From contig JAHFKN010000004.1 in assembly GCA_023245355.1 (NCBI GenBank), positions 25,309 to 89,308 of the forward strand: a DNA stretch of 64,000 bases, given 5' to 3'. The stretch comes from Candidatus Gottesmanbacteria bacterium. Its GTDB lineage: Bacteria > Patescibacteriota > Microgenomatia > UBA10105 > UBA927. Positions 4,819 through 55,175 of the stretch are shown piece after piece. Numbering within the stretch: the first letter of the stretch is position 1; each line of letters begins with the position of its first letter. The translations under genes were made by a program, and so were the position numbers. The notes beneath the pieces are model-generated. The model saw nothing but the letters and a program-made list of their open reading frames with translations, searched no databases and was not told where the DNA came from.

Positions 4819-4843
4819 GGGATAATGACACCATTGTGACACA

Positions 4844-22104: not shown

Positions 22105-25100
22105 TCACTTTTTTATCTCTAATTCCGTATTTTCTCCGTTTCTCACAAATACGTGAATCGTCACTATTCCCGTCACGGTAATTCGTAGTTCCCCTATCGG
22201 TATCCGGTCGCTCGTCCGGTACATGGGTATCCATGTATCTTTCGGCACAGTGCCGAAGACAGATAACAATTTCTCATCAATATCCTTTTTATTCGGGGTA
22301 AATGACACCGTTCTTTTACGGTTTGCCTGCCCGACATCAATGGCTAATTCATCACTGACGGGACCCACCCACGAAAACCACCCTTCCGCATCCGTTGGCC
22401 CGGCGGGATCCTCTATTTGGTAGGCCAGATACCCGCGGACAATATTTTTCTTTGCTGATTCTGGAACCGGCACGGCGATATCAATAGAATGATCCTCACT
22501 CCCGGCTGCCGCCCCGATATCCAAAAGCACCAACATCCCTTTCTCATCTATGCTGACTTCATACGTAATGGGGTCGTTTAGCACATGCAGACGGTCTCCG
22601 ACAAAAAGCGGCACATCGCCTCCCGACATCACCTGCCCGTTTTTCATAATATCCCTGTTGTCGTAATCCCTGTGCACAATCAGCTGTTCCCCGATAACCT
22701 GTATCCGCATCGGTGTCGCTTGCGTAAGGTACACATCAATACTTGCTGACGGCGTCAATCTGGCTGACGGAGGTTGTAGAGGAGACTCTTTTACCTGTGC
22801 GGCATTCGTATCAATCATCACGTTGGGCGTATAAATCACGGCAAACGAAAGGTCGTCCTCATTCCGCACCCCCCATTGTATAAACGCGCTCATAAGCTGT
22901 GTGCGCGCGGCAGATTCATCAGGCGCATCATTCAGGATTCTGGCTACATCAGCCCGATGCCCCTCAGAAATAATCTTCTGGATACTGTCACTACCCACAA
23001 TCCATCTGCTGCCCGGCGGCATCTCGCGCTCTACGACATTGGCAACACTGCCATCATCCTCAAACATCTGCGGCGTTTCCCCTGTCGTGCCCGTTACTTT
23101 TATCTGGTATGCGGCTTTCCCGGCTTTTGTCGGAATATTAATCCACGCCAGATACGTACGCGCCTGTTCGGGAGTCAGCCTGCTGTTTTGCCGTTTTACA
23201 GCAGCGATCGCCTGCGGCAAATTCGGTACAGTTTTCAACACGCTCCGTAGCACATCGTCGGGCAGTGATCCTGCTTTGTATTGCGCGCGCTCATCGTCTT
23301 GTATACGCGCCCATGCGACTGCCTGCTCCGCCTGAGCAGTACTCAACCGGGTATTCATCAACAACAGATTATTCACATCCTCTTCTACGTTTTTGACTGT
23401 AGACAGAATTCTGTCAACGTCTGCTTTCTCTAACTCGCGCGGTTCATCAACACTGTCCAATTCCTTCGTTTGCTGGTTGTAGACAAACCGGTAATGGTTC
23501 CCGACCCGGTAATCCAGCATGTATTGTTTTCCGTCTTTCCGGTAAAAAAGAATGACGGAAAGTGTCGTACGCACTTTTTCTGAGGCCGTCGCATTGTAAC
23601 TCCGCATTTCCTGCGCATACAAATCCATGATCTGTGCCAACCTGTCGGTACGGGCATCCGTATCCAAAAATACGTTCGGGTCAAACCCGCTTCCAGTCAT
23701 ACGCCGGTATGTTTCTATTGCCCGTTCCCATGCTTCTTTCTGAATATCCGCTGATGCACGTCCCTGACTTGATACGCCATCTATATTTACGATGATGTCA
23801 GGGCCGGTGATGATGACATCCTCCCCTCCGATTGCATACGTTGCCCCCTGCGGAACCTCAGGAACAAATGCGGGCACTAATGACTTTCCTGCTTTTGCAA
23901 GTGCTGCGCCTACTGATTGTTGTGTGTTCGAAAGCGGCGTTCCCATTTTTATGCCGAGCAGCTCCCGCACCCTAGGATCCATAATGCCCAAATTCACGCT
24001 ATACGGACCGGATGTAAGTACATTCCATAATCTTCTCCACCATGGCAACGCATCCTGATATTTTCTGCCCGCCAACTCACCAATTGCGCGCTGCCATCGG
24101 AATGCACGCGTGACATCTTCATCGGATTCGAATTTGTTTTTGGGCGCAATTTGTTCCAATTGATCCTTCTCGCGGTCAGACACGCCTAATTCAGTGAGCC
24201 GGATACCCCCGCGTTTTTCTACCGTCACATCAGGATGCAGATACCGCCGGAGCCAATCCCATTCCCAATAGGGAATACCTTGTTTTGGCAATCTATTCTC
24301 AAAGAAATGAGCAGATATAGTCTGTAACGCGTCTTCATTTGCGCGGGACGCCAAAACACCCAGTGCCTCATCAAAAATCGCTATATTTTCCGTATCGGCA
24401 TCCGACTCACCCCCGGTATTGGCAAATGTCACATCCGTGATACCAAAACTCGGATGGGAATAGTATCTGTGACCGTCAATAGAAAGATCCGATAGCTCGT
24501 GCTGCAGCGCCTCACGGAACGCCTGTATATCTACTTGCGTTCCCTCAGGAAGAAAAATGACAAAATCATTTGCGGATTTATGAAATACGACAATCTGGTG
24601 AACTCCCAGTGATCCGAACACACGTTCAACAATAGGGACAAACTGTTTATGAATCATCTCGTCCCCTGCCAAATCCCCCAGATCCGTATTTACGTGTTTG
24701 AGCGTTCCTGCATAACTCACCTGCAATAGCCGGGCATTTCCGGGATATAATTCATGAGCCGACTTTATAGCACCTTTAGCATTTTTATGCACCAGCACTT
24801 TTGCGTTTGCATCAATCGTCCGGAAATACCGTTCCAAAACGCCTGCCGGCCCCTGTAACAAATCATCTACCAGTAACGTAGTGGTCAGTTGTGTCATGTA
24901 TTGCCTGAACTGCTGATGCACGCTGTTTCCAGTCTGACCCAATAACGAAATATCATGTATCAACAAGTTGATAAGCCCATAACTTCTGCGTAGATTATCC
25001 AGCGCCTCCGTGTATATAGCATCTCCTTCTATAGCAGCAGCAAGGGCATTCTGATCCACACGGGCGACATCTTCCATCGCTAATGATTCATCAGAAAGAT

Positions 25101-28100
25101 GTATGCCAAGCGGCCTGGATGTTATCCGTTTTCCGTCTTCATAAAACATCGTGTGTGTTCCTAATATTTCTCCAAACCGCGATATAAAATCGTCTGCTTC
25201 AGTATCCGTCACTGACTCATCGACGAATATGGCATACTTATCCCCTGCTACGCGGATGAGGCCGAAGCGGTTTGCCGCGTCATTCATGGCAATTCTTGTT
25301 TCGAAAAACACCGCAGCCATGTCTTTCAATAAATAATCTCCCAATAATTTTTGAGTTCTGGAATCGGCGAGGACATGATTTGCCCCGAACAGATTTTCAA
25401 TATCAATAACTTTGACAATCTTACGGTTTACATGCGACAGCAACGGCCAGGATTGGGACGTCCAAACAAGTTGAGGAGCATCTCCGTAACTGTTTACCTC
25501 ATCAATCCAGTCAGTCCGCACCTGGCTCCGGATGCTTAAAGGAAACATTTCACGGCTCAGTGGCCGGAGTTGTTTTTGATGTAATGCATCAAGAAAATAC
25601 TCATTATATAGATCTACCAATTCCGGGGCGCCGATAAGTATCTGATTCATTTGTGAGGCTAACTCTATGTCTCCCATACGGTTGATAAACTGTAAGAACG
25701 CGCGGAAAATCGCTGCCTTTACTATCTCCCGCTGCTGAACCCGCTGGAAGCTGTTCTCCTGTGCACTATACGCTTGCAACACCGGCGTCCTGCTGCGCTG
25801 TTGCAACTCTACAAACACATCACGGAAATCGTTGAGAAGCTGTTGGTGTGTCCAGGTGCCGTTCCCTGACACTGATGCAAACCGTTTGCGCCGGCCGCTC
25901 GGGGTGACCAGATCCATCACCGCAAATACCGTCCCGTCAGGCACTTTCACCGTATCAGCTGAGTATTCCGATATGGAATCGAACTCTGCTTCAGATACGA
26001 GTACAGGAGGGACATACGAAACAAGCGCTGTTCCGTTCATCGCCTGTATCATAGGACCGACATACGGCAGACGCAGTAATCCCAAACGCAAAAAGCGCTG
26101 GAGCCATATCGGAATATACCGGTTATTCGTCACCATAAACACGACACCCAAAAGCGACTCGTCCTGCGATCCGTTGATCGCCCGGACAGCCGTATTGAAT
26201 GCATCCGGCTCAATCCACTGGTTATCAGGAGTGATCATCGGTAATGTTTGCGGCTGGATTCTCCGCAACTCAACCGGGAAATTTTGCGCATCACTGCTTT
26301 CCGGATACGTAGGTACCATCGGCGAGATGATGGAAGAATCGTTTTTGAAATCCATATGAAGCGCTTCCAGTGTTTCCGCATATAAACGCGCAACCCCGCT
26401 GAAACGAAGCGTTCCGTCAACCGGTATCTGTAACACCGGATCCTCAACCTGAGTATTCATACCGGGAACATTCATCGTTCCCTGCTCCAAAATACCGTTG
26501 CTTAACGCAGCAAACATCCGGAATGCCAACACGCCCTCTACCACCAAATGATCGCCTGTTACTATGATGCCGCCGGTACCCGTCCGGGCAACCCGGAGCC
26601 ATGCATTCTGACTCTCCGTATATCTTCCGACATACCGCTCCGGATCAGCCGGCTGCTCGTCAATAACGACCATCGCCTCCCCCGGATCCGCTGCTATTTC
26701 ACCCTGTGCAATCAATCCGGCAATTTCATCCGCCGTAAATTCCCGGTCCAAAGGAACCCTGATACGCCGGAATCGTCCGTCTGCTTGTGCAATCGCAATC
26801 ACCGCTTCATCTTGGATAAGCTCCCTGGGATCATAGGCGGTCCTGTTTTTTGCTTCATTCACCCGTACAAACAGAGGCTGATTGTGTGCTCTGGCAGCAT
26901 CACTTCGGGCAAATTGCAGGAAGTTGACTATCAGTTGCGGCGCAAAGTCATCCTTTACCCGCATGTTTTTATATTCCTTGTGCAGCACGATCGCCCGTTC
27001 CCGCCGGGTCAGACTTCCCACCATATATTTCTCCCACTGCGTCATTTCGGAAACAGCCCGCGAATCGACGGCAAATTGCGGAGAAGAAATCCGCCTGATA
27101 CCCACAAGCAGCCAGTATAATCCGCGTGCCAGAGCCCGACGCATAGAGGAAGCGCGGAGAATCGGCAGATCGTTCATTGCTGCTGTAAGCTGCGTCGGTG
27201 TCGGCAATCCCATGCGCACCAACGACCGGTCATCGGTGCCGATTGCTACCCGTAGGCTTTCGCCGAACGGATACTGCGGCTGCATACGGATAAACAATCC
27301 TCTCACGCCCTCCTGTACTCCGCGCAGCTGATTGAGCATGCCCGCACGCCGGGCGACAGCCGGCCACCGTTCAATCGGCTCATGGGTAAATAATGCTACT
27401 GCTTCTTCACGGGACATAAACCGTCGGACACTAAACACCGCTTCTACCCCTGATGTGACCATGGCGTCGTACTGACGGTATTGCTGCGGGGTTCCCATGT
27501 GAGCCGCCAAAAGCGCATCAATTTCACCCGCATACTCTTCCCCGTATTCACGGATGACTTTTGCACGGATGACCCCCGCTTCAACGGGATAACTGTCATA
27601 TTGTCCCCCGTCTGCCTGACGTTTCGTGAGCGTTCGAATAATAAATGAAGAATCTTTCGCGAACGAATTATCCCGTTGGGCGGCATATGCAAGTATTTCC
27701 GTGCTTACGATATACCGGTATGTGCGGGCATCAAGATACGCAGCTAATCCTTCCCGGCGCTCTTCCTGGGTATTCCATGACCGCAATAATTCCGTTAACC
27801 GGTCGGTTGCCGGAGCAGAACTTCCGTCATTCCTGATGATGTCATACACCGCATGCTGCATCTCATGAATAACCATTTGTCTGCCGTACGCTTCCCCGTA
27901 CCGGCGGTTTATAAATATAACCGAATCGTTAAATGCTGGTATCAATGTTTTCCCAGGATGCAACCCGCTTGCGCCTTCATACGAAACCCCCTGTGCTACG
28001 ATACCGTCGTGCATGAGCTCGTGAGCATTCAACGCCGCTTTGCTAAAATCTGCAGCATCCAGTTCTATGATCACAAACGGGCCGCGGACGACCATGCTGG

Positions 28101-31100
28101 TTTCTGCTCCCACATCCGTACCGAATACTGCTTTTATGAACGTTTGCCCGTCCGGATACGCTGAGGCGGCGCGTCCGATAATCTGTTGCTGCGTGCGGTA
28201 CCGCTCCACAATTCTAACCATTTCATCCCGCACCGGCCGCGTAAATCCGTACGTTATCTGATATTGATCATAGACGGCCCGGATTGCCTCGTCGTCTGCC
28301 TGCGGATTTGCGATAAGAAGCTCGCGGACTTCGGCTTCCAATCTGGCCAATCCGACTCGGTAATAGGCATACTTTTTATCAAACGCCGCCTTGGTCATCC
28401 GGCGTTCCCAGGAATTCGGCGGGGTTTGCCGCATGGTGGTTATCCACTCGCTCACGTCAAACGTTTCGCCCCTTCGTATGGGAACGGCGGATATACTCTC
28501 CCGGAACCTGGTAAATAGATATGGTTTTTGCAGGAATTCAGGAATTAATTGCTGAAAGCCCCATACCGACCGCGTTACCGGTTTCTCCGGATCCATAGAC
28601 TCGAGTATTACTGCTGCCGGCGGCTCCATTCCCTCTTCTATAATCGGTGTCACACTGTCGATTACTCGCCCGACCGGACAATCATTTGCACCCTGAGGAT
28701 CTTGTGCAAATACCAACGGAATCAAACGCAATGCAGACCCTCCGCATGCCTGTTGTCGCACCCGTTTCGCCGCGGCTCTGACAAACTGTTTTGCCGGCCG
28801 GGTCACCGGTGTATATGCATTCCGAAGCGCCCTGCCGCTGCGCACTGCTGCAAGCGCCAGCTGCGGATCAATCCACGGACGGCTTTGCTGACGGAATTGC
28901 GGAGATTGCGGCGCAGGTTCTGAAGCAGGAATCAGTTTCCCTATTCCCTGCGGAATAAGCACCTGCATGGTCTCATCAAACTGCCACAACCCGCGCCACA
29001 TAACACCCAAGGAAGCTGTTACTCTTGTAAACCAACGTTTGTCCGTCTGCTGTCCCTCAAGACGGAGCATGGCGCGCGCGAGCGCAATGTTTGCACGCAA
29101 AGACCGCTGAATCGCACCGGGATTACCGGCTGCAACTTCGGATGATTTGAGCGCACGTCCTGCGAAAATCCGCTGCACGAACCGGAACGGCCGCTGCACG
29201 GCGGTATATGCAACTCCGACAAACACCGAACTCAAACTTAGATTCGTGCCTGGCACAGACCCCTGTTGCCGCGCCGCCGCCAATGCGCCCCCCTCTTCCT
29301 GTGTAAGTAATATGGCGATTTGTGATCGTCCACGGCCCTCTGCAATCGCGCCGTATTTGGCGACAAACTGATCAAACGTAAGCGTTTCACCGCGGATAAT
29401 TCCGTCTCCGGTCACTTTTCCGTTTGCAAATTTATAGTTTGCGTCATATACCGTAAATGTCTGTATTCCTGCTTCATTTGTATCAATATACGCTATGTGT
29501 CCGGGATTTTTTGATCCTTTGTTGTATACGACGAAAAAATGTCCGGGTCCGTATGTTTGCAAATCTTGTTGCGACTGTACGCGTAATACGTAATATTCAC
29601 CCCGAAATACCAATCCGTCGGGATCATTGGATAATTCATCACCGGCCATAGATTTCGCCACTTCACCTCCGATTGCTGAAATCGGAATATTGAAATCAAC
29701 GAGCCCGCTTTCTACGAGAAGATTTGCAAACGCCACACATTGCACCTCCTGATCCGGCCAAACATTGCGCTGCGAGGTGAACAGGTCATCCAGGAAATCG
29801 TATGCATCATAGTCCGCCCGGTCGAGCTCACGTGCAAGCGTCTCAAACCCGCGGTCAACCAATCCTGTTTTTAATGCTTCACTCGGCGTTACTGTATCTC
29901 TGTCAGGGCTACTTTGCCATTCGTTGAGGATATCTGCAAATACGTTGGACATAATAGCCGCCTGCGTTTTGGCAGCCGGGCCCAATATCGTCCGCGCACC
30001 TGCTGCTGGTAGCCGCGGCAAAGCGGTAGGAACCTGTGGCAGCGTTTCAGCAACCGGTGGCTGCGCCTCAATAACAGGCGGCTGTACTTCTTCCGGTTGA
30101 CTCACGGCGGCACTTTGTGCTGGTACCGACAGCGGTTTAGTTCCGGCAGGAGACAACACCTGTACTCCTTTAAACTTAGCAAGGAACGTATCGACCGGCA
30201 TGAGGTACGTGCCCGTCGCCTCATCTTTTTCTATACCGGCATACACACCCCACGTAGACGGATTGATAAATGAAGTCATCAGGCCGTCTGCCAGCCGGAC
30301 GAATACTTCGCCGTCACGCTCAACAAACCCCAGATACACCAAACTGTGTTCGGTAACTTTCGATGAATTAAGGGAAATGATTGTTCCATGGGCAACACCC
30401 TTGTAGGCTGCTTCCTGCTGTCCCATCATGACCCGAAGTAATGACTCCCTCAGATCAGCAGACGGCACATACAGAATAACTTTTCCGTCCTTGATCTCGT
30501 ATTGTATGGACGGGTGCTTGCTCACCATTTCCAGGAATACCGACTGGGTAACTTCGTACCGCGTCTTGGACTGCGAAATGACGGGGATTGTTTCGTCACT
30601 TAACTGATAGCCCATATTCTTAAGAATTGAGGCAAATTCCGTCTTCCCTTTCCCCTCCTGAACCCCGAGATTCAGAAGCGCCAGCGCCTGTTCTGACTTT
30701 GTTCCGCCGCCGTGGTTTAAATATTTCTCCACGATTGCAGGATCCATCGTCAGACTGTCGCGGGACTGAGCTTCGGGAGACAATAATTCCGCATACAACA
30801 ACGGGTCGATAACGACAGGCACGGTTCCCGTAGTTGCAGTCTCTGCATCGATAAGCGATATTGCAGCCGTAAGCGTATGGATATAACAGGTAAATCCGCC
30901 TGCCTGCGGCAGCGCGATAACGTATCCTGAACTCTTGCTTCCCGGCAAGCCGCTTTGGATTTGGGAAAGCGGAATTGCAGCGGTTTGCGCACCGCGTTCT
31001 TCCGTCGTTGCCGACGGGAATACGTCATCATGGAGAAGTGACCCGCTTGGCTGACCGTCGGACGGATATGTCACAACCCGGGCAATCACCGTCCCCTGTT

Positions 31101-34100
31101 CATTCGTGATATCGACAACTTGTGCGCCTGCCAACACAAGCCGCGCGTTGATACCGTTTACATTTCCTTTTCCGAGCGTTGCCTCCAGACTCTCATACAA
31201 CTTACGCACATCATCAACCATTCGGTTTTGTTGTGCCGTACTAGTACCATACGTCCGCTGTGACTTGACATAAGTTACAAGCGCCTGCGTCACATCCGTT
31301 TCATACCCGAGCGAAGACACTGATACGGGGACAGCTGCGGACGGACCACTCCCGCTATTACTCACGGGAGGCAAGACCAGTATCTCACTGGGCTGTTCCT
31401 GTTGATCAGTGATGACATTGCTGCTTTGCTGCCTGCTCGCAAGATAATCCTGAATCCGTTCTGAATACCCCTTCATGGCAGGAACCTGAGACAGAAGGAG
31501 TGCTAGGGCCAACACACCGCTGACCATTTTAATCGTTACCTGCGCGAATACTTTTTCCAGCGATTCAAATACGCGCCAACCGACTGACTGCAATCCGAAC
31601 AATATGGCAAGAACGGCTGCAATCATTCCCGATATCTGCGGCAGCCGCGTCTGCACCAGTGATCCGTACTGGGGAACCATCATGGCAATCGCCGCAAGGA
31701 ACCCAAGTCCTGCCGCTATCTCAACTGCTATCAGTATGTTATTTCTGGTAAATAATCCGCTGATCTGATCACGAAGCGGTGCTATCTGCTTCCGCGGACC
31801 TGCCGGAACAAGGACGGACGGCAATAAATCTCCGCGCTGCCCCCGTGTTACTGCCGGCGTCTGACCGCGGTCTTTTGCTCCGTATATCGAACCAAGCGCG
31901 GTAATCCATTTCCTCGTATTGTTCCTGATATTTCCTTTGTAAAGGGAAGTATCAATCCCTGTTAATACCGCCGTAACGACGTCGTTGATCTCTTGGGTTT
32001 TGACCTTCTCGCCTCTTGCCAGCCGTTCTACTACTGCGCGGGCCTGTGCATTCCCGGCTATGGCGCCGACAATGATATTGGCAGCGCTGTCGCCGGTAAT
32101 GCGCGTAATCAGTCCGAATGTCCGGGCATCTGCTGTCTCCCGGACCATCGAAGTTACCAACGCTGCCCGCACGGATTCAATAAGCGGAGACACCGGGGCT
32201 CCGGAAAGATGCCGCACTACATTCTGCTGGATAAGCGCCAAATCAGAATAATTATGAACACGGATCTGATCTTCTATCGCAGTATCGACTGCAGACTGGA
32301 CGAATGTTACCCATGCTTCATGCTGACCGACGTATTCCAGCAAACGGTCCTGAATATACACGGCAAATAGAGTCTCCCAATGGTCTTGCGAGATTGCCGC
32401 CGGACGGATCGGATATGCAGTACTTACCTCACGCACAACTCTGTCACGGAATTCCGCGTCATTGCGGTCAATGACACGGCCTTCCGCAACCCACGTGCGC
32501 AAAGCTGCGCGTACCTGCGTACGGATTTCCGCTCCGCGGATTCCCATAAGGTCAGCAAACCCCTTTGTCTCTTCCGGCGTTACGCGGAATAATTCATAAG
32601 CAGCGATGAGTCTGCTCCTTAATGCGGCAATGTCTTCTGTTCTCGCCGGAGATCCGGTATCAAGGGTAGGACTGCGTAATAATTCGGTCAGCAATGCATA
32701 CTCTTCTTCATGTCCGTATGTTGCCGTCCTGTTTGCACCCCTGCCTCTGCTGATAGTTCCGATCCTGTTTTCGATAGCAGTACGGAGAACAATCTGTTCC
32801 TTTCTCAGTGCTTCAAGCTGAGAAGCGAAAATCACATTTGATTCCTCAGTCATCTCCGTACTTTGTAATTCTTCAGGAATTATCTGCGGCTCGGGCGTCT
32901 GCCGTTGTGCCGCCTGCCTGATAATTTCAGGATCTACTCCTACGGTTCTGGCCAATATTGCCGTTAACCGGGTCGCGCGCTCATTGCGTTTTGCCCGTGT
33001 GACCAACCGCTTCATTGTGTCTGACTCCATTACACGGATAAGACGCGGGGTGGCAATGGCGATATGAATTTGCTTATCCTGCGATGTGAATTCCTCCTGA
33101 TGCGATTCTATATAGGCAAGCGCTGCTCCTCCCTGAAGCTTCACTCCCTCAATAGTCGTAATTTGCAGCTGCTGGTCAAGCTGGAATCCGAGCGTCCGTA
33201 TAACAAATAACGCCATTGTCGGATTGGTAACACCAAGAATGCGTACCGGCCTGGTATACCACGGCATGCGTTGAATTTTTTCTATCGCACGGACCAAATC
33301 AACAGTTCCTAAATTGACCGACTGGACATCATATATCGCATTTTGGCTTGCGCTAAACGGCACGAAATGCATCCACATGGGTATCAAAGGAATAATCGAT
33401 TGGGAACTTTTGATACGGCGCGGAATGAATGATATGAGTGATTCAATAAACCTTGGTACACGATCATATAACCGTGATATAACGTCACTTACACGGGATC
33501 GCTCGAAAGCCACTGATCCGGTCCAGTCATAATTAGACCCGGTCATACGTGCATGGATATTTGTGTCTGTTTGGAACAACTCTTCTTCCGTTAGCGACGC
33601 TAACGCTTCGCGATATCTATCTTCAGAAAAGTTCTCGTCCGTTATTCCAAACCGCTCAGCCACTCCGGGCGGCAGCGATTCGATCAGGCGGAAATTTACC
33701 ATCTGCGGCGTTTCATAAAAATCACGCTTACTGTTGTATGGGATACCGAACTCATCGAGAATCGAGCGCGCTGCGTCGCGATTGGCTTTCGTATTTTCAA
33801 GACGGATTATATTCAGGTTCAGCCCGGAAGCGATGCCTGCTCGACGGGCTAAATCAGTCTCCGTACGGGACATTTCGAGCCGAAGAATACGTAATAATTC
33901 TTCCACAACCCGGCTCCTGTCATTTCCTGTTGTAAATATCCGCCCATGTTGTTCAATAAAGTACGTAACTTCATTCAGGGTAGAAACGACAGCATTCGTT
34001 GAAAGATTCCAGAGACGGTTCTCCGAAATCAACCGGAGCCCTGTGGTAAGCAGTACAATCGGGTTTATTTTATCGGTATCCACACCTTCTTTTTCTATAA

Positions 34101-37100
34101 GGGATTCAAGCACCTGAGTGTCTATTCCGAATCGCAGGCTAAGCATCGGAATAACATCTTTGGATTGTAATTTGCTTGTCGCGGTAAACCGTGCAACATC
34201 GGACCGGCTACGGGGAACCGACAGTCCGTTGTTTCCTGATCCCCCATCAACGACAACCGGCACTTCATTGACTGCCGCTTCTTCCTCCCGGATAAGGCTT
34301 CTTCCGTCACTCAACAGTAGTTGCTCAGCCGACTGCACCGGGCTCAGCAGTATGGGATATGAAGTCTTCCCCGTTACCTCAAAAATAGTCCTCACATCAG
34401 ATGCCAATTCCAGCATCCGTTCCTGTGCAGCCATGGGATTTTGCAGGTCGGCCACCAACATGGCAACCGCGTCAGGAAGGGTTATTTCTGGGGGTATGGG
34501 TTCTTCTTCCCTTGGGGGAATACCTGGCGCCGGTGCCCCACCCGCAGGCTGCTCATTCTTTCCGCCCGGCTCCCCCGGTTTTAGAAGCCACAAATAATGA
34601 GCAATATCAGTGATCAATTGTGCGAAATTATCCTCGGAAATACCATACGTTTGTGTGATATGAGCAAGCGTTTCATCGGTCGGTTGCCTGTATTGGACAT
34701 CATTGGGGAATAATTGTTGGAGAAGTTCTGTGGTAATTTGCGCGGCATGGAGTCCACGGAATATCTGCTCTGTTTCTTCTGCACTGCGTACCCATCCGCT
34801 GTTTGCTTCCTCAAGAATTTCCAGCGTCAGCTGCTCCTGCCGTACAACAGCAGGAATCTGAGCAGTCGGATTGACTGTCATGGATATCAGTGTCCGCATA
34901 TATATTGTCAAAAGCGCCCTCACTGCGTCGGGGTTTGCCCGCACCTGAGTAAACTGCCGTTGAATTGCCGCTTGCGCCTCATCCCACCGGGGATTTGTGT
35001 CCAGTTCTTCCTGTAGATCAGTAAGACGCGGCAATACCAACTCCCCGGTAGCTCCCGATATATCGGCAAATACCGCATCGAGCATTGCGTTATCTTTCGT
35101 TGCGTCCAGCCCGAACCGCGCCGCCATTTCATCCATAAGATCCCGGATAGTGCTTTGCGGTGCAGGCGCAGGAGCTTCCAAACTTGCATAAATTTCCGAT
35201 ACCCATGACTCAAGTTCTGTGGTGTTGATTCCTGTTTCCATGATTCCGCCGTCAATAAGCAGCATTCTGATCCTGTCACGGAGCATCGTTTCCCTGTGTT
35301 GTCCGCGTGCTTCTGCAACAAGCCGTTCATCAGACGCTACCCGTGATAACAGGTCATAAAATTCATCAAGTGCAGCGCGGTCCGCAATGACATGCCGTAT
35401 ATACCCGGTAAACCGCTCAGCTTCGAAGCCTACTGTCTCTTCGAGTAACGGGCTCAGGGATTCACGCACAACTCCGATTCCCTGTGCCTCTGTCGTCCAT
35501 GATTCCTCACCGAGCGCACGGACTACGGCAGTAATATCAGTAAGGAGTGCTTGTGCCCGGTACGGATTTCGCATAACCGCACGGATAATATGCGGAGTAA
35601 GCGGAGCAAGTTCCCGTGCATCGGCAAATAATCCCAATAATGTCTCCCACGCAACTTGAACGTGCGGGTCACGCCAGGCTTCCAATACACCCACCGGCGG
35701 CATAACACCTACCAGCATGTCTGTCACGATCGGTGCGATAAGCTGCCGCCACCCATCGGGAATACCGCGCGTTATGGCAAATGTAATACTTCTTCGTCTC
35801 TCATTCATGGCACGTGCTCCGCGTGAGCGCTTCTGCTGCTGTGCCCTGGATAAAGCCAACGCTTCCCTACCCGCCCGTTGACGGATGTTTGTCGCGATAA
35901 ACTCTCTGGGAGCTGCCGGAGGTACACCCTCATCAAACGTCATACCCCACTTTGTCAGTTGGTCCAGGAAATCATTGAGCCGCTCCTCGACAGACTGCAG
36001 CACGTCGTACCTGCCCATTTGGGATCCCGTCCTTCTCGAATACCGTCGCTCAGGCGGAGCAGTTCGGTTATACGCATCAATACCGTTTTCCAGCAATTCC
36101 AACGTACTCTGACCGCCCGTCGTTGTCTGATCTACCGCTGCCGTCCTCTGATTCAGCTGCCCTAAATATGCAACCATCGGATCAAACACCTGCCGGAGAA
36201 TCGGCTCGCTTAATCTGGTATACGTCTCACCCGCTTCGGGACCGGTGTTATCTACACCGGCAATCATATGCTCCATAAGCTGATGGATAGTGCCGACTTT
36301 TACGTTTACCTTGCTGTTCCATGCAGCCAAAAACTTATCCGGACTGATATGAAAGGTGGTAAACCGGTTTAATATAATACCCGTCACGGCATCGGCAAGT
36401 ACCGGTGTACTATCTTCATTGATCCACGTTGTTCTTGCTTCTGCAATCGTCCGCAGTATAAAGTTTTGCAGATCCTGAATTTCACGGCGTAGCTGCCCCG
36501 CCTCCTCAAGGTTCTTATATGTCTCGGTCTCTTCAATTAAACGGATAAATATATCCTCGGGTACAAATATCGGCAATCCCGGATTACGCAATTCCGCTTC
36601 ATACGCCGCGCGCAATATGTCTGCTGCCCTATCCGCTGGGCTCGCTATGATGGCTCTTCGTGCCGATACAAGGGCCCGTAATTGATCCCTGATTTCTTCT
36701 GACTTCGCCTTCGGGAACTCAGTTAACAGCCATGCATCATAGGCCGCACGGGTTTCCTGAACTTTTTGACGAACCTCAGCGGTAACAGTACGGAGTTCGG
36801 AAACATTCTGATTATCTACAGCGTCATACCACTGTTGCGGTACGTCCTGCAGCGTCTTGTGCATATACGATTCCTGGTCGCGTATGATACGAATTGACGC
36901 CTCAATATATTGAATCCGCAATTTACGCTCGAATGATCCAGCCGCCCTCTTCCGTTGTTCTTCCGGCAATATGGTGATTTTCTGTACATCTGCATCAAAC
37001 GCGCTGATAAGCTTTTCTGTCTCATCAATGTTATCTTCTGCGCCAAGCGACAATCCCTGATATCGGCTCCGCAATTTAGAGAGAATCTTATTCCCTGCCT

Positions 37101-40100
37101 GAGTAACTTTTTCCTGCAACTCCGCCCCGTAATGCCCATACTCGCCGCGGGCGATTGCGTCGGCAATCTGCTGCAACCGTGCAGTATCACGGCTCAGCCG
37201 GGCATATACTTCCATATCTGCCACAGTGGACAACTCGTCAAAAAACGCCGTTGCCGCTTCAAATTTTTCCATTGACGATGTATCTGCCCCGGGAACGAGC
37301 GCCTTGAGATCAAACACCGGCTGATCCAACACACTGAAATCTCCGTTCCCGATATTTTCCATAAGACGCTGAGTAATCTGTATGTTCCCCTGCATGTCTG
37401 CTTGTGCAGCATCTGTCAGTGTTTCCGCTTCTGACCGCATGAACTCATCCAATGCTATCAGTGCGTTATACCGGTCCAATCTCCTTTTATAAATCGCGTA
37501 GTCATTTCCTTTACCCATGCCGCTAAACCACGCTTCCGAAAATACCGTTTCTCCCCCAAGCGCAACTCCTGCCGGCTTCTCATCAAATACGCGTTTTGCC
37601 GTCTGTATATACAACGCGTGATACCCCGAGATAGCTGCATGGTCCCGCGGGGAATATTCTTCCGGAGAATAAAACCAGGCGTCCGCATTCTGGTAATATC
37701 CTGAAACTTCCTCAGACATCCACGCTTTAAATGCACCTTGCCCGAATTGACTGTCAAATAGGGTACCGAATGGCGGCACCATTGAGGATCCACCCCGTAG
37801 CAAATAGGTGTACCCTGTGTCTGCTGTAGTTGCCAGACTGTCCAAAATCGCCCGCTCCTCAACACCTGCCTTACGAAGCAAATTAACGGCCTCTAACACA
37901 CGGGCAACACCTGTTCCGTATGCTATGAATTGAGCATCCGGTACGACCAGCTGAGCCAAACCCGACGTAAATGCTTCAATGTACGTTTGTTCCTGCGATT
38001 TATTAATGCTCAGATTTTGCACCTGACGTTCATGAATCATTTCATGAGCCAATGTGTTTACAAGCATTTCAGTGTTATTAAATTGACTTGTCAGCACGAA
38101 ATGACCGCTCAGTTGCTTTGATTGGAAGCCAACCACGTCAGCGGCATCAGCGGTGTCGTATACGATCCCAAGCTTTGCGTCGAGCACGGTAAACGGCACT
38201 GCATACCGTCCGGACCCGAATGCGAACCGGTGCCCCGTCTTGTCTTCAACGGTCTGATTAAGATAATTATGCACGGCAATATTGAGATCAAAATAATTGC
38301 TGAGCGTACCGAACGAAGAAAGGATATCCTGATAACTCAGGCGCATACTTGCAGCCGCAAGATATAATTCATCATCCGTTACTTCCGTAAGCGCTCTGTC
38401 GTCGCGATATACTCCCCCGTTTACCCGTGATTCTATTGACTGCAACAGGGCTGCCTGTAAATTCGTCAGATTAGACAAATCCAAATGACCGCCATCACGG
38501 GTGTTTTTCAGCCGTTGCTTGGCAATACTCGTTTTGTACAGGGTAACAAGACCCTCAACGGTGCGCTTGTTTTCGGCTGCATCCCCGTACATACGGGATA
38601 TATACTCATCAGCAACTTCCCTGAGATTAATTGTCACGCCTAACAGGTGCGCGACTTTAGTCTCCATGTCTTTCTGTATCAGACCGGCACTCCCTATCTC
38701 GGTATTCAGGGTGGTAAATTGGGAAATTTCCGTTTCGGTAAAATCAAATCCGAGCCTGTCATATTCACTCTTCAAACTGCGTAACGCCGTCGCAGTAAGC
38801 ACGCTGTTTTTGTCATACCCGTTCGCACGGATAAAATCAGAAATATGATTGGTAAATTGTGCGTATCGTCCGATAAACCGCCGCACCTCATAATAATCAG
38901 TAGCCGCCTTCCCGAGTTTCACAGACGCCACACTCTTCTCTAACGTGGTGTTCTGGCGTGAGCTTCTGCCCGCTGTTATCCTGTCTATCACGGACTGTAT
39001 TGCCGGGGGAAACTGTTTCTTTTCCGTCGTATCCCCCGCCGGAGCCACAGCTGGTGCTGCCTTTTTAAGTTCTTCTATCTTCTTTTCTGCCTCTAAAATC
39101 TCTTGCTCATACTCCTTGAGCGGGTCATTACCGAGAATTGCATCTGCCGCCAGATTCCACAGATTACGAAGCACGCTTGAGGATTGTCCGGTAATTTCCG
39201 CTTTTATCGCCGTGAGTGTCCGCTCGGCAGATGCAGCATCGGTCATCGTACGTATCAGGGACAAATCCGCTTTGCGCTGCGCGCGGATGAACGCGAACAC
39301 TTCATTTGCCTGCTTTGCGCTCTTACCTGCTAATTCTGCACGCACCGCGTTCATAGCTAACGCCCGTGCAGTCCGCGCATTTTGCCTCGCTCTGTCTGCA
39401 AGAGCTACTTCATCAGGAGCGTCAAAAATGTCAGCTTCTTTGGTATGCACAAGATATCGGACTATATTAAACAGAATCGTATTTACGGGCTTCCCTGCAT
39501 CCTCATGGCCGGATCCCGGCCTATGATTATCTTCATGCTGCTGTATAGCTGACATAATGTCATTGAGATACCCGATAGCAGAATCTGTTTGCCCCACACT
39601 CCTGGCCTGATGGGCCTTTGCAAATAGCGGCATGATGACGTTTTCCACAAAATCAGAACAGTCAGAACAAAGCAGCGGATTGATTTGTGCACTGCTGAGC
39701 ATCTGAGCTTCGACATTTGCACCGAATAAATTCGCGACGAGAGCACCGACATCGGCGCCACCCGAAACTCCGGCCGGTGCTGCCGTATATACCGTAGTGT
39801 AGATAAATTGCGATTCCGACACGGTAACCGGCGTTTTTACCCCCTCAAGATCAATATTCCACGTTGACCTGTTTATACCGTTTCCTCTGACACGTCCTTT
39901 TATCTCAAGCACCGTGCCGTTTGCATTCGTATATTGAGCGATAACGTCAATACCAAGTCCCTGCGCGACACCTGCCGGCAATACTACGCCTGTCAGGGTA
40001 TATCCCGTGAGATCAACTTCAGGCGTTGTTGTCACCGGTGCAGAAGGAACGGGGACCTGGACAATAAGTGTTCCTGCTTCAAATGCTAACCGCTGCTCTT

Positions 40101-43100
40101 CCGTCGCAATCGCCTGCGTCACGCTGTCCAGTAGAGTCGTTGCGGAAATGACGTCGCGGACAAATCCTGCACCCGGCACGACACCTGCCACAAGCGCTTT
40201 TTCAAGCGCTTGTAAGGCGGTAAGATGTTGCTGTTCACGGGCAACAACAGAAGATACAAGATTATTGAAAGCCTGAACAATTGCAGACGTATTTCCCCAC
40301 AGCGCCCTAAGGTCCAGCCGGCCGATAGCCACCCCCTGCCCGCGGATTGTTTCCAAAAACTCATTCATCTGTTTTTGTGCTGCTACCAACTGTGATGCTG
40401 CGTCTGCTTTCTGCTTTCCGGATATATACGCATCTTGTGCTCGGCTCACCATTGCCTCAGCTGCTTTAATATCTTTTTCAATTTCACGGAGCTTTGCTTC
40501 ATAATCAATGACTGCGCCTGACTCTGCATTCGCTTTTGCATTCACGACTGCCTGCAGCGCTGCCTGAGCCGCACTTCTTGCGGTCTGCAACGCTTCGGAT
40601 TGTTTGCGGACGAATTCATTTGCTGCAGCAAGTCTGGCCTGAAGATTTTGTAATTGTTCCTGCTGCTGCGCCGTCAATTGTCGTGACGGTATCGGTTGAG
40701 CACCCTGAGGTCGCCTCCAAAAAGCACTGATCTGATCAAAAACTGAGACAGTAAATGGTGCAAACGTATACGTTTCTGGAGTAAACGTATTTACGACCGG
40801 GGTATCATACCGATAGGAATAAACAGTAGTGTTTATTTCCTCCGTGACCCGTTGTACACCTTGACTGCCAAACGGACTTGTTGCATCCAAAAATACAAAA
40901 TCGCTTCCCTTATACGCCCGGCTTAATTTATCGTCCAGACCCAGCACAGTGCCGTTATTGTATGATTTTGGTGCAGCCGGATTATGACCATGAAGTATAC
41001 GCGGTGCTATCGCATGTGTATTAACATCCGTAACAAAAAGAGACCGATAGTAATCGGACAGCATTTGACTCCCTTGTAGTTGCCCGTGGTGTGTGAGGCT
41101 TCGGAAAAGATTCTCAAGTTGAGTTGTATTCCCCCTCGCTATGATAGCGCTGATATTGGCATTGATCCGCTTTACTACGTCATCAGCGCTCAACCCTAGT
41201 GCCTGTATACGCTCCCTGACGCGCCGCAAATCATTTATATCTACCTCTTCGGAATCACGCAGATCTGCAAACGCAGGTTCCATAAAAATATATTTTGCAT
41301 AGATCGCGCTATCACTATGCTGCATGATGTCACCGCCGCTCCGTAGCGATATCCAATCAAGTGAAGCAAGTAGTTTCCGTAACGACGTGACGTTCTCCCT
41401 AGCCTGACGAACCTCTTCGGGATCTACTCCATTTCGGGCAAATAACCCGCCACCTTCAAACGACGGAGAGTTAGGATCTGATAAAGCTGCCCAGAGAAAT
41501 TGAACTTCATGATTTCCGCCCATGAGCAGCATGTCACCGCCCATACGCCGCGCTTCATCACGAAGGGTTGTGAGACGCCGTAACAACTCTAATCCCGGTT
41601 GGCGTGCATACTGCGCGAAGTATCCGGACTTCAGATATGGCCGTACAGTGAGCCGTCCGTCAATAAACTTAATACCCCGGTCAAAATAATCACCAAGAAA
41701 TGTCATCAAAATACGCGGATCTTTTACGTGCCATTCATGCTGTGCATCTACGGTAATTGCCCCACGTGACAATAACACCTGTTCAACTTGTTCCGGGTCA
41801 GCGTGAACATCTGCTAATATCAACCTATACAAGGCCGCATCTATCTCACTGATAACGACATGTTCTGCTATCGTCTTTTCGTCCCATTTAATCCCTGATA
41901 GTATGGTTGCCGTGACTTTTCCAAGAGACGGAATGATGATATTTCTGCCGAATTCATCGTACACCTGATTAGCTTCCTGATCAGACAAGCCGAGCCGCAC
42001 TAATTGCTCAATCTGATAGCTTCTGAATACCGGAGAGCCGAATCCTTTCGCGAATATTTCCTCCCGAACCCTGCCCTCAAAATCACTCATGAGACTCACC
42101 GGATCTATTTCAGATTGTGCGCGGGCGAATTGCTGCATCTGCACACCGATATTATGAACTGCCAAAGTAAGTTTGGATTGGTATGCTTCACGGAGCTGAG
42201 TATATGCACGTGCGTTTTTCTGCTGAAGTATCGTAGCTTCCTCCTCCTGTGTCGGGGCAGTTACGACCGGACTAACAGGTACCGGCTGTACCGACTCGAT
42301 CTCCAGCGCTATAGCAGCCACCTGCGCATTCGCTGATTCCAGTGCCGCCTGAGCACTCATAACTGCTTCATCAGCTTGTTGTTGTGTTGTAAGCGCCTGC
42401 TGATATGCTTCTTCGGCAACACGTCTCCGTTCTTCAGGATTATCCTCATTCTTTAACGTATTTATTGCATCGAAATCCGCATGTAACGCGGCGAGTTGTT
42501 TTTCTGCATCCAGTACCTCTTTCTGCCGTGAAGCCGCCGTATCTAATAACGTTTGTAATTCACCTTCTAATTGAATTAATTGCTGTTCTTCAGGCATTAT
42601 CGGAGATGTACCTTTTGCGGAAAATGCCGGCCGTGGCGTTACTTGTGCCAGATGATGTGCCCATAATCCCACACGGAGTGTGTCGTAGCCGATGATAAAC
42701 GGCACAAAAAGCGTCACGAGAAATGCAGGAATTATCCCTGCGATACCGATCGCTCCGAACGCCATACCAAGGACTGCTACGATCATCGGGAGCAAAATAA
42801 CACGCGAGACTGCATACCATACGATTCCTCCGAATCCTTTGGTGATACTCGCGTTCAGGAATGAATACAAACCACCCGATTTCGCAAACAGATTTTCAAC
42901 CCCGGTAAGCGCTCTGGGTGAGCTGGCAACGAGTGTTGCGACAAGCCGGGACAGGTCAAATCCGAATACTGCAAGCGCACGCGCTCCCCAGAACGGCCCT
43001 GGGAAAAGAGCGATACCGCGCGATATCCAGAATATCGCCTTATCTGTTCTTGGTGAGGCAGTAATCACGCGGGAGACAAACTGACGGATCGTCGTAGGTT

Positions 43101-46100
43101 GTGTGGTTTGTACCGGTGCAATGAGAGAACCCTGTGTCCATTCGCTTCTCGGAATCCACCAGACGGTCTTTCCGTTCGGAGCAGCCCAAAACTTCTTCCA
43201 TCCGGCTAACCCGTCATCTGCTAACCGCTGCAAGTCATACGCCCAAAGCGGACCCGAAATCGCATGAAGCGGCGGGAAAAATATACCGGCTATAGACAGT
43301 AACGGCCGGGAGATGAGCCATACACGCGCATTATTTCGCGGGGTTGCATTGGTCCACGCTTTCGGAAGTATGAAAAATTCAAACCCTTTCATGTCCCAGT
43401 TGTCCACGCTCTGAATATAGGAGGTGAGGGTAAGTGCGGGCTGATTTCTGTTGGATATTGCCCGCCCGATCCTGTACGTATCCCATGCCAGCCTGATCGG
43501 TGCCGCGGTCACGAGTGACGTCGTCCACTGCACGGTCTGAAGGATTGCCCGGAGCGGATTCCACTGCGGATCACCGATAGCAAACGGCGTTGCATTTACC
43601 ATACTCTCCAGTGTTCCCGTGCGGCTTCCTGCATTGATATTTTTGAGCGTCTGACTGAACTTCGGTGAATTCATGAGCGGCAACGTCCAGTCACCGTGGA
43701 AGAAATTCTGTATGGTCGGCACTGTTAACGCCACATTTGCAGCTCTCACGGCCGCGGCTATCATCCGCGTCGGCGGCTGTAACAGTATGTCGTTAGCCAA
43801 AAACGCAATTCCTATCCATGGCTGACCGATGAAAAACGGCCCGATCCTAGTCGCGCCCCAGACAGCCGCTGCTCCCAATTGCTGCGGCGTGGCCCACTCG
43901 CCTTTTCCGGTAATCAGTCTCGTAAACACCTGACCGAGCAATCCGAACGGATGTGCCCCGAAACTCATATCATATGCCGTACCGATATCCTGCCATTGTG
44001 TCGTTACCGACTGCGGTTGTTGCAAAGACTGAGCGTTCGGAGCAGTCCGTGTTTGGGAATATTGAGGCGCCACTCTTCTGAACGCTAATTGGAATGCCGT
44101 CGGCATACTTACCAATGCCCGGCCGACAGATGTAACACCCGCCCACCTGGCAGCAACCCATTTTGCGCGGCTGGTTGCCGCGATAACACCATTTACGTTC
44201 CGGCGCTGACGCGCAATCCCGTCACGGACAAACCTGCCGGATAAGCCGTCAATTACCTGACTGATAATTCCGTCTGTCCGCTGTCTGTACGAAGTGACAA
44301 GTACGTTCTTATGGGAATCCGTCTGGATATGAACTTTCTCTGCCTGATCAGATACGGCGATATCGCTCCCTACAGCAGCACCTCTGACGACTGCCAAATC
44401 GGTAAATGCCTGTTTTACAGCTGCGTTTGTTATTGCCGGCGTATGCATAACAAACAGAGATTCCATCGCAGCACGCAAATTTTCCCTCGCGGAATCAGCA
44501 AGCGAAAGTACTGTCTGCTGCGGATTACCCGCAAGCGATTCTGAAGACAGGCTGCTTGCTGCCCGGGCTATCGCTTGTTCGTACGCTACAAACGCGGCAA
44601 CTGCCCTGGCATACGCTGAACCCCGCAGTATATCCTCTGTGACCTGAATGCCTGATTTATTGAGCTGTTCGGCAACTTTTTTCTCGGCATCTTTCTTTAA
44701 CGCTTCAGCAATTTGCGGAGATGTCGCCTTACCTAATCGGTCCATTTGGGCCGCAACTTGAGCAAGTTTTGAGTTCAGATTATACAATGGACCAAATTCC
44801 GGCGCGCTAATTGTTTGAACAGTCTGCAATGCGGCAGGACCCGAAGACACATCGATAACGGTTTCTATATTTCCGGTAACGAGCTTCACACTCTTTACGC
44901 CTGCCGGCAACGTAAAGACAGACGTATCATCAATGGTCTGGCTCTGTTCGGATCCGTCAGCGGCATTCCAGACAACACGCGTACCGTTTTCTATCGTATG
45001 TGCGCCGGTTAATGCGCTTTGATCTGTTCCCACGAGGATATCGCCTTTACGGATCGTACCTAAGGTATCCACGGTTTGCGTACGTATCGGTAAGCGTGCT
45101 TTGGCTGCCTCCAATTCAATTTTCGCCCGGGCAAGCTGGGCCGCTGCGACATTTGCCAGCGAGAGAGAAAACGCATCGGAACCGCTGAGTGATCTGCCGC
45201 GGCTTATCTGATCGACCAACGTCTCTGCTCTCCCCAACGAATCCAGAGCAACCTGTTGCCCTACCGGATCAGCAAACGGTGACGCTGCCCTGGTAATTGC
45301 TTCCACACGTTCCTGCGTCGTCACGGCAGCCGTATCCCGGCCCTGACGCGATACGCTGGTTGCTATATCGGATACACGGATATTTTCGTTAATGAGCGCT
45401 GTCCGCTGGTCAACACGGAGGACATTTTGTAAACTCGCACGTGTTTCGGGGGCCGCTGTGTCCGTTATCGCTATGGCGACCCGTTCACCGGAGTTGTACA
45501 TGGTATCGAAATAATACTGCCGCGCCTCCAGACTCAATTGCTTAAATTCCGGCAACTCCTTGATGTGGTTGATAAAATCCCTGGCCCTGCGAGCAGCCTG
45601 ATCGATGGCTTCCGAACCCAGCTGGCTCGATTGCGACAAACTGTCATTGATACCGGCTACTTTGTCATATTCCAACTTCAGCGCCTCGGAAAGAGACATA
45701 GTCTTTCCTTCACGTGTCACCATAAGCGGTGCCCCACCGTTCGTGCGCGCACTGATATCGTTTAGCAGATCAATGCTGTTTTTTACCAAATCATCATACC
45801 CCTGGCGCAAGGCATTCGTCAGTGCGTTTTGTTTGGCGGACAACTCATTGCCCTCAAAAATATCAAGCGCAAACTCTTTGTTTATACGGGCATCGGTATC
45901 GCTTAAAAGATATACGGTGCCGTCTTTTGCTATTTCGCGTGCCCGGCCGATATCCTGCACGACATCGGTCGTAGTTCCGGTGCGTTCACTGGTAAACACA
46001 TACTCCGGATCACCAGATCCTTTCAGAAGTGTTTTCCCGTCAGGACTCATCTGATGCGGTTCAAATACGCCTTTTATGTCCGTGCCTCTCCCGCTCCCCT

Positions 46101-54974: not shown

Positions 54975-54997
54975 TCGTTACGAGTGGTTTTTACCAA

Positions 54998-55023
54998 AAA
55001 GAAGCCCGGAGGCTTCTTTTTTT
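54998..55023. terminator. Bidirectional rho-independent terminator (stem aaaGAAGCC / GGCTTCttt, loop cgga, flanked by A-run and T-run)
   Basis: Perfect 9-bp stem with T7 on the plus strand and A/T-run symmetry. It sits 2 nt past the 3' end of the tRNA pair (minus strand) and 24 nt after the small plus-strand ORF. Confidence 0.65.
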
Positions 55024-55024
55024 G

Positions 55025-55095
55025 TGGACCCGAGGGGAATCGAACCCCTTTTTGAACTATGCCATAGTTCCGTACTACCGGTATACGACGGGCCC
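55025..55095 (-). tRNA. tRNA-Ala (anticodon GGC)
   Basis: Hand-folded. Acceptor GGGCCCG/CGGGTCC with the G3:U70 Ala identity pair, anticodon stem GAACT/AGTTC, loop ATGGCAT, T-arm AGGGG-TTCGATT-CCCCT. No encoded CCA. Confidence 0.8.
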
Positions 55096-55102
55096 TGACA
55101 AG

Positions 55103-55175
55103 TGGACCTGACCGGAGTCGAACCGGTGATCTCCGCAATGCGAATGCGGCGCTCTACCAACTAAGCTACAGGCCC
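55103..55175 (-). tRNA. tRNA-Ala (anticodon CGC)
   Basis: Hand-folded. GGGCCTG acceptor with G3:U70, D-arm GCTTAGTTGGTAGAGC, anticodon stem CCGCA/TGCGG, loop TTCGCAT, T-arm CCGGTTCGACTCCGG. 7 nt from the neighbouring tRNA. Confidence 0.85.

Follow-up and report, generated by a model that had tools for sequence, protein, structure and literature searches.

GGDEF diguanylate cyclases (PF00990), such as PleD (1w25), DgcZ (4h54), a T. maritima protein (4urg) and DgcR (6zxb), form homodimers. The Mg2+ ligands of PleD are D327 and E370, the guanine is read by N335 and D344, and D327, N335 and D344 are essential (PMC7288161). Among degenerate members, the GGDEF domain of PdeA/CC3396 in Caulobacter senses GTP and that of YybT/GdpP in B. 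subtilis hydrolyses ATP (PMC7288161). GGDEF domains are also found in giant proteins of Omnitrophota ('Archaeovorins') and Actinobacteriota (West-Roberts et al., 10.1101/2023.11.21.568195). Both degenerate GGDEF domains and GGDEF domains within giant proteins are known already. Here we describe a cassette of two tandem GGDEF-like domains with flanking motifs of its own, for which we found no description in the literature searched. It lies in a 64,000-nucleotide stretch of a Candidatus Gottesmanbacteria genome (contig JAHFKN010000004.1, positions 25,309 to 89,308; the window), within a giant open reading frame (ORF) of 10,844 codons on the minus strand (22105..54639).

Compared with the canonical cyclases, the cassette carries AGDKY and SANDF at the two signature positions, fuses two domains in one chain where those enzymes assemble as homodimers, lacks the beta-1 Asp in domain 2 and has no RxxD inhibitory site (I-site) in either domain. 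It adds a conserved lead-in and a W-x-W-L / EKRG motif, and the window copy falls under the Pfam and NCBIfam cutoffs. The likeness to PdeA/CC3396 and YybT/GdpP lies in a GGDEF fold with a broken signature and retained nucleotide contacts that would serve a regulatory or alternative activity in a larger protein. The domains of PdeA and YybT are single and stand beside EAL or DHH-DHHA1 domains, whereas those of the cassette are paired and no EAL or DHH is detectable. In 3icl, the GGDEF domain of a Methylococcus capsulatus EAL/GGDEF protein, motif position 4 has likewise gone from Glu to Lys (RIGGDKFTIL; domain 1 has RVAGDKYAIF). It differs in being a single domain of an EAL/GGDEF protein with both glycines present; it is a structural-genomics entry, and we know of no reported function for it. 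Like ours, the giant proteins of West-Roberts et al. are bacterial, exceed 10,000 aa and contain a GGDEF-type domain. Their GGDEF domains are detectable by standard hidden Markov models and were discussed as cyclases with downstream PilZ, while the cassette is tandem, degenerate, sub-threshold and without a PilZ that we could see. Relatives of the cassette are labelled Patescibacteria or, in conflict with this, 'Gammaproteobacteria', and not Omnitrophota.

Sequence comparison identifies both domains as GGDEF homologues, and this homology is solid because significant links lead from the window to Pfam GGDEF by way of one relative, P0007, and because profiles made from the family match GGDEF structures exclusively. 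P0007 matched the window at E=4.7e-11 in a HMMER search of 1.84 billion proteins; it bears the JGI name 'GGDEF domain-containing protein' and scores over threshold against Pfam GGDEF (35.1 bits) in two matched stretches. When a profile of seven modules was searched against the PDB, 23 of 23 matches were GGDEF, with separate matches for each half (domain 2, E=2.5e-5). A profile of domain 1 only matched 3icl best (E=2e-5), and also 6hbz and 4zve, all of them GGDEF. The window sequence matched Pfam GGDEF in domain 2 only (aa ~9980-10070; E=0.017-0.056, 13.6-15.4 bits against a cutoff of 23.8), domain 1 had no Pfam match, and phmmer of the window fragment against the PDB returned none. In NCBIfam, aa 9788-9869 of domain 1 weakly matched (E=0.016) the model of the phosphodiesterase GepA, which we take to be a GGDEF-EAL protein. 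The two domains are barely alike (BLASTP E=0.21, not significant; hhalign in register, probability 9.6%), therefore their common origin rests on each matching GGDEF and not on each matching the other. The sub-threshold score of the window alone, the missing Pfam match of domain 1 and the low similarity of the two domains would suit a chance likeness, with no more than a generic ferredoxin-like or palm fold in common, but the significant chain of links and the GGDEF-only profile matches refute this and leave it practically no chance of being right.

An AlphaFold (AF2) model of the module, starting at aa 9700, has a predicted local distance difference test (pLDDT) score of 70.8, with 84-93 in the core of domain 2, and a predicted template modelling (pTM) score of 0.60. 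The signature falls on the beta2-beta3 hairpin of the GGDEF/palm fold in both domains: AGDKY is flanked by model strands 93-99 and 102-108, and SANDF lies on the hairpin between strands 316-323 and 326-332. Foldseek against the PDB agrees with a GGDEF fold and aligns one domain only (TMq ~0.22); it found no solved PDB chain that matches both domains at once. In the HMMER alignment to 6zxb, the family consensus LklvnddlGdeaGDelI is paired with FKNINDTYGHEIGDQVI and vvyrr.andfyvvld with IISRFGGEEFVILFP, reproducing the block alignment of domain 2 that a preliminary description of this DNA had made by hand. That description proposed two tandem GGDEF-fold domains, neither with a canonical GG(D/E)EF, and profile searches, the AF2 model and residue mapping agree on this; the best matches lay within GGDEF and the fold search agreed with them, rather than leading away from a palm fold or to an unrelated family. 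The four peptides it quoted are all present on the minus strand (IDIENLF at aa 9745, RVAGDKYAIFVDE at aa 9796, KHVNTDLGDLAGDEMIHKQF at aa 9981 and VVFHKSANDF at aa 10017), and its numbering, aa 9700-10120, fits the 22105..54639 ORF, in which the peptides span aa 9745-10049.

The conserved unit is wider than the span first flagged, 24340-25422, which lies inside it. On the plus strand that interval is filled with stops; on the minus strand it is internal to one ORF. The whole cassette occupies 23950..25758 of the minus strand (aa 9628-10230) and consists of a helical lead-in, GGDEF-like domain 1, a helical linker, GGDEF-like domain 2, the W-x-W-L / EKRG motif and a tail. The conserved lead-in (25477..25758, aa 9628-9721) is aligned in P0003, P0006, L002-L004 and L008. 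The AF2 model covers aa 9700-9721 of it, with low confidence (model residues 1-24 have pLDDT <50; residues 2-5 and 10-18 form short helices). Domain 1 spans 25033..25476 (aa 9722-9869), with AGDKY at the GG(D/E)EF position (25234..25248, aa 9798-9802) in the turn of the beta2-beta3 hairpin. The inter-domain linker (24805..25032, aa 9870-9945) is modelled as helices of mostly low pLDDT and ends with D9925-x-x-L9928 (LLVDDLL), a turn into domain 2 whose D9925 and L9928 do not vary among the 11 members. Domain 2 spans 24304..24804 (aa 9946-10112) and has SANDF on its hairpin (24562..24576, aa 10022-10026). Directly after it comes the C-terminal conserved motif FENRLPKQGIPYWEWDWLRRYLHPDVTVEKRGGIRLTE (24190..24303, aa 10113-10150; all coordinates on the minus strand). 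W10127, L10130 and R10143 of this motif are kept in at least 10 of 11 members, stand-alone proteins included; the motif has no known homologue, and the module profile gave no non-GGDEF match in the PDB. We regard the cassette as a self-contained conserved unit made of two divergent GGDEF-fold domains, a linker and family-specific N- and C-terminal elements.

Active-site residues were mapped through HMMER alignments to DgcR (6zxb) and 3icl, with conservation counted over 11 family members. Domain 1 is not, as the preliminary description had it, similarly degenerate: it keeps the metal- and base-binding residues D9746 (D327 in PleD), N9754 (N335), D9768 (D344), R9796 (R366), G9799 (G369) and D9800 (E370), all six retained in at least 10 of the 11 members. 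It departs from GGDEF at motif positions 1, 4 and 5 (G368 to Ala, E371 to Lys, F372 to Tyr), and has Phe (F9751) in place of K332. Domain 2 retains K9981 (K332), N9984 (N335) and D9993 (D344). Its beta-1 metal Asp (D327) is replaced by S9975, in agreement with the earlier reading of VSY for the metal-binding DxD, R366 by H10020 and E370 by N10024, and the signature has become SANDF. Both metal acids are therefore present in domain 1 and both gone in domain 2. The set conserved in domain 2 among the 11 members comprises the Lys, the Gly-Asp and hydrophobic core residues, and the guanine-reading Asp (the D344 position) is invariant in both domains (11/11). A regular-expression search for GG[DE]EF, [AS]GDEF and GGD[DE] found none in the 10,844-aa protein.

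Eight relatives were found by an exhaustive HMMER search of 1.84 billion cluster representatives, making this a rare GGDEF subfamily that standard annotation misses. A word-indexed protein search gave no match for the window fragment, only P0002 for the alignment and only itself for P0007, because the family is too divergent to share 5-mers. A genome scan with the single window sequence found no relatives; with a three-sequence alignment it found the loci L002-L004 (39-47% identity). All three belong to ORFs longer than 6,100 aa, each of which continues beyond the 21 kb retrieved. Scanning metagenomes brought in the orthologue L008 and two contigs from groundwater. P0001, P0004 (7,694 aa) and P0005 (4,454 aa) are fragments of other giant proteins bearing the module. 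P0007 and P0008, in contrast to these, are stand-alone proteins of ~510 aa with little beyond the module and a true GGDEF in the first domain. In place of LIRVAGDKYAIF of the window they have LVRIGGDEFKVM and LIRVGGDEFKLM, and in place of its HKSANDF, RRGGDF. P0008, like the window copy, is under the curated cutoffs, and only P0007 passes that of Pfam; the gene neighbours of P0007 are housekeeping genes and uninformative. By hydropathy the stand-alone members have neither a transmembrane (TM) helix nor an N-terminal hydrophobic stretch, and they are probably cytoplasmic.

The domain 1 motif varies across the family: TGDTY in L008, TGDKY in L002-L004, VGDTY in P0001, KGDKY in P0005, GGDEY in the first of the two P0004 copies (P0004a) and GGDEF in P0007 and P0008. 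The fourth residue is K or T in the giant-protein clade, throughout which xGD[K/T]Y is retained, and E in P0004a, P0007 and P0008. SANDF is identical in the window, L008, L002, L003 and L004, which are 39-84% identical overall, and is GASDF in P0001. The two P0004 cassettes lie at aa 4030-4454 (with GGDEY in domain 1) and 4688-5137, and the second (P0004b) is largely decayed, with E, P and G at the D327, K332 and N335 positions and NDNRF at the motif. In P0005 the cassette is close to the N-terminus, and P0003 joins segments resembling aa 8394-8681 and 9628-9796 of the window protein directly.

The degenerate motifs are maintained and not decaying, as judged from the conservation of SANDF and xGD[K/T]Y together with low omega values. 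L008 and the window are 85% identical in nucleotides over 6.4 kb (window 22123-28542, L008 1-6426), and the C-terminal ~2,100 aa of the giant protein are under purifying selection (omega ~0.11). The cassette as a whole has an omega of 0.109, with 0.16 in domain 1 and 0.054 in domain 2. The most constrained segment is the C-terminal motif, aa 10113-10150 (97% identity, omega 0.025), and the fastest-evolving part is the linker (72.6% identity). We also observed that synonymous divergence (dS) between the window and L008 varies ~30-fold, from 0.075-0.22 in some 100-codon blocks to 1.1-2.1 elsewhere, the cassette being high; this pattern hints at a recombination mosaic between strains.

We favour the reading that the cassette is a non-catalytic nucleotide-binding or regulatory module, and assign it a probability of about 0.5. 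The preliminary description had suggested a sensory or nucleotide-binding role or a different nucleotidyl-transferase activity, and of these we prefer nucleotide binding. The window cassette would not synthesise cyclic diguanylate (c-di-GMP) in the canonical way, because the fourth motif residue of domain 1 is Lys (Thr in L008) and domain 2 lacks both metal acids. Domain 1 would still bind a (guanine) nucleotide with Mg2+, because the beta-1 Asp, the motif Asp, the guanine-reading Asn and Asp and the Arg before the motif are kept; it has every GTP-Mg residue listed in PMC7288161 except the second motif Glu. Lys or Thr in place of that Glu would be expected to block chemistry more than binding. 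Domain 2, with only its Lys/Asn/Asp set, would be a fixed intramolecular partner that replaces the second subunit of a GGDEF dimer, and within the giant protein the pair would sense nucleotide occupancy or work as a regulatory switch. A comparable case would be Caulobacter PdeA/CC3396, whose EAL domain is controlled by a degenerate GGDEF domain that binds GTP; GTP binding by CC3396 and ATP hydrolysis by YybT are the precedents (PMC7288161). In L002 the cassette is followed by a weak protein-kinase/APH-like domain (~11780-12135, aa ~3929-4045 of the partial ORF; Pkinase 27.6 bits, E=2.4e-6, with a catalytic-loop-like HGDWKLEQF), which hints at a nucleotide-rich compartment; the kinase-like domain was not seen in L003, L004 or the window.

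Several points weigh against this reading. Nucleotide binding is predicted from conserved residues only, neither domain has confidently placed equivalents of the phosphate-binding K442 and R446, and domain 1 has a hydrophobic residue (F or Y) at the K332 position, although PleD makes that contact through its main chain. The orientation of the domains is not fixed by the model (pTM 0.60, linker pLDDT <50, no PDB chain spanning both). The stand-alone relatives with a true GGDEF may be ordinary cyclases, and some catalytic role may persist in the K/T variants. The main uncertainty is topology. Crude hydropathy predicts five TM helices before the cassette, which would put the window cassette outside the cell, and P0005 has a signal-peptide-like N-terminus (aa 1-35, MHTRTKLYYIVLGFTVGIIFGSLAGLSIPKVYA|QD) ~80 aa before its cassette, which would put a GGDEF-type module outside the cytoplasm in that protein. 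An extracytoplasmic location would argue against nucleotide sensing. The stand-alone members, for which no TM helix is predicted, and the kinase-like domain behind the L002 cassette point the other way. Should the cassette indeed be extracytoplasmic, or delivered to another cell, the setting would be unexpected for a nucleotide-signalling fold.

The topology also bears on the possibility that the cassette is purely structural or a protein-interaction module, in which the GGDEF folds serve as a rigid scaffold or docking unit, perhaps extracellular, without a nucleotide. We hold this to be improbable. In its favour, the strongest constraint falls on the W-x-W-L / EKRG motif (omega 0.025) and the domain 2 core (0.054) and not on the classical active-site loops, P0004b persists despite having lost most key residues of domain 1, and the cassette is a constant island within hypervariable giant genes. 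The signal-like N-terminus of P0005 and a possible outside location of the window cassette after the five predicted helices fit it as well. On the other hand, members that are 20-25% identical keep the nucleotide- and metal-binding D, N, D, R, G and D in domain 1, and weigh against a scaffold, which would not be expected to preserve those residues in particular; the stand-alone members, with no TM helix and probably in the cytoplasm, point the same way.

The cassette could instead be an active non-canonical nucleotidyl cyclase or transferase in which the two domains form one asymmetric intramolecular active site, a reading that we consider unlikely. Domain 1 would supply the metal and the donor nucleotide and domain 2 would hold the acceptor, following the logic of Cas10 Palm1/Palm2 or of heterodimeric class III cyclases, and the product would not be symmetric c-di-GMP but, for example, a linear dinucleotide, a mixed cyclic dinucleotide or an oligonucleotide. 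The metal-binding acids and base readers of domain 1 are kept in 10 of 11 members, each domain retains what the other has lost (domain 2 the K332 Lys, domain 1 the acids), and the stand-alone relatives pair a true GGDEF in domain 1 with a domain 2 that is always degenerate. However, the fourth motif residue is not fixed (the window has Lys, while L008, an orthologue with 85% identity, has Thr), and substitutions at this Glu abolish cyclase activity in WspR and PleD. A GGDEF half-site also lies within one domain, so the complementarity of class III enzymes is not directly transferable, and there is no GGDD motif in the giant protein, no cas gene in the window and no match of the cassette to PADLOC defence models. 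With complementary losses in two hard-wired GGDEF folds, the cassette is a test case for the passage from cyclase to sensor or to asymmetric enzyme.

A bolder combination of these ideas, to which we attach little probability, would make the cassette an independently evolved intramolecular GGDEF hetero-pair with Cas10-like asymmetry, in which a metal-bearing half-site is joined to an acid-less partner and makes or senses a nucleotide signal other than c-di-GMP. It would be a constant unit that recombination passes among giant envelope proteins, hypervariable in all other parts, of bacteria with small cells and perhaps an episymbiotic life, and it might act in or on a partner cell.

It is very unlikely that the cassette is a c-di-GMP receptor of the degenerate-GGDEF type (PelD, PopA-like) that binds at the inhibitory I-site and relays the signal, and we rate a receptor using some other surface for c-di-GMP no higher. 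Degenerate GGDEF domains are a known receptor class (PMC7288161), and the GGDEF domains of giant proteins have been discussed together with PilZ genes (West-Roberts et al., 10.1101/2023.11.21.568195). The preliminary description had also raised an I-site-type receptor, and its RxxD check came out negative: no RxxD lies five residues before either motif, where the residues are NDAANRFGLIRV in domain 1 (ANRF at the I-site spacing) and SLGVHQIVVFHK in domain 2, and none does in any homologue examined. The module contains a single RxxD, RTID at aa 9940, and this belongs to the linker. Of the window ORFs that were scanned, none was recognised as a PilZ, EAL or HD-GYP gene, and this too counts against a receptor.

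Membership in the Cas10 or type III CRISPR cyclases, the other arrangement proposed at first together with Thg1-like proteins, is rejected on motif, accessory domains and cas neighbourhood. The Cas10 (Csm1/Cmr2) Palm1-Palm2 pair was outscored by 31 GGDEF structures, GGDD is absent from the giant protein, no HD or D4 domain was detected, and no cas genes occur in the window; one relative had a weak Csm1_B Pfam match (E=0.006). A class III adenylyl/guanylyl cyclase is likewise rejected, with no profile match and no best structural match, as is a Thg1-like palm protein, for which neither structure nor sequence gave a match.

The giant ORF that hosts the cassette is a genuine coding sequence, judging by its omega of ~0.11 against the orthologue L008 over aa 8700-10839. 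When the 10,844-aa protein was scanned in four chunks, no Pfam family reached its curated cutoff. A weak match to GA_3 (aa 1234-1318) lies in the first 3,400 aa, the remaining three chunks had no Pfam match at E<=0.01, and the only other weak match is the sub-threshold GGDEF in the cassette. Searching aa 8401-10844 against the PDB with phmmer gave chance-level KaiB matches only. No internal repeats were found (BLASTP E<=1e-3), and the cassette is present once. It is among the very few interpretable pieces of a protein otherwise blank to Pfam, and a practical experimental entry to the function of giant proteins because it is conserved across unrelated giant genes.

By hydropathy, a strongly hydrophobic predicted TM helix lies at aa 64-82, in the N-terminal part of the protein, followed by segments that are PT-rich and Cys-rich in composition; further hydrophobic helices are at aa 3948-3966 and 7635-7715. 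The N-terminus has KTPT-type repeats after the TM helix, and the first 1,000 aa contain 33 Cys, where other stretches of that length have 0-6. Three plausible HExxH motifs (LAHEMIHERQ, NAHELMHDG and VIHEMQHAVY) are located at aa 5532, 8873 and 8925 (~nt 38044, 28021 and 27865, minus strand). The segment aa 8720-9103 is homologous to aa 309-694 of P0001, which also has a HEYSH motif, and there may be a metalloprotease-like domain ~700 aa upstream of the cassette.

Within these giant genes the cassette stands out as a conserved island. The main alignable stretch between the window protein and L002-L004 is aa 9628-10208/10230 (39-46% identity), and two further stretches align with L004 only. L003 and L004 share 88% amino-acid identity over ~600 aa while thousands of flanking residues are unalignable; in nucleotides, L003 9737-11505 and L004 9740-11508 are 89% identical over 1,769 nt with sharp edges (dS 0.34, omega 0.21). 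The sharp island suggests either exchange of the cassette by recombination or extreme divergence of all else. L003, like L002, is labelled 'uncultured Gammaproteobacteria bacterium' and L004 'Patescibacteria group bacterium', and L003 and L004 both have 41% GC; probably at least one label is wrong, or the cassette has moved between phyla. A scan of viral contigs found no cassette. Positions 8900-10700 of L001, stitched across three reading frames, read as an intact L002, and L001 is by this comparison the same gene as L002 broken by frameshifts. In protein databases the L001 gene appears as separate 'proteins' of 700, 108 and 413 aa (P0006, P0002), and fragmentation of this sort hides giant genes.

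The chromosomal setting of the giant ORF is ordinary bacterial. Downstream lie a PIG-L deacetylase and then a 20-kb envelope-glycosylation gene cluster, part of a dense plus-strand set (window 335-22039, 22 kb downstream of the giant gene) with a DegT aminotransferase, a GT2, two PMT_2/ArnT-like proteins, YfhO, a dTDP-sugar epimerase, an NPCBM protein and PIG-L; several ORFs of ~530 aa in this set have no Pfam match. Upstream are Rho, an M23/LysM peptidase and two adjacent tRNA-Ala genes with GGC and CGC anticodons (55024-55175, minus strand), just before the giant gene. After the tRNA-Ala pair, at ~54995-55025, a hairpin with a T-run (gaagcctccgggcttcttttt) resembles an intrinsic terminator.

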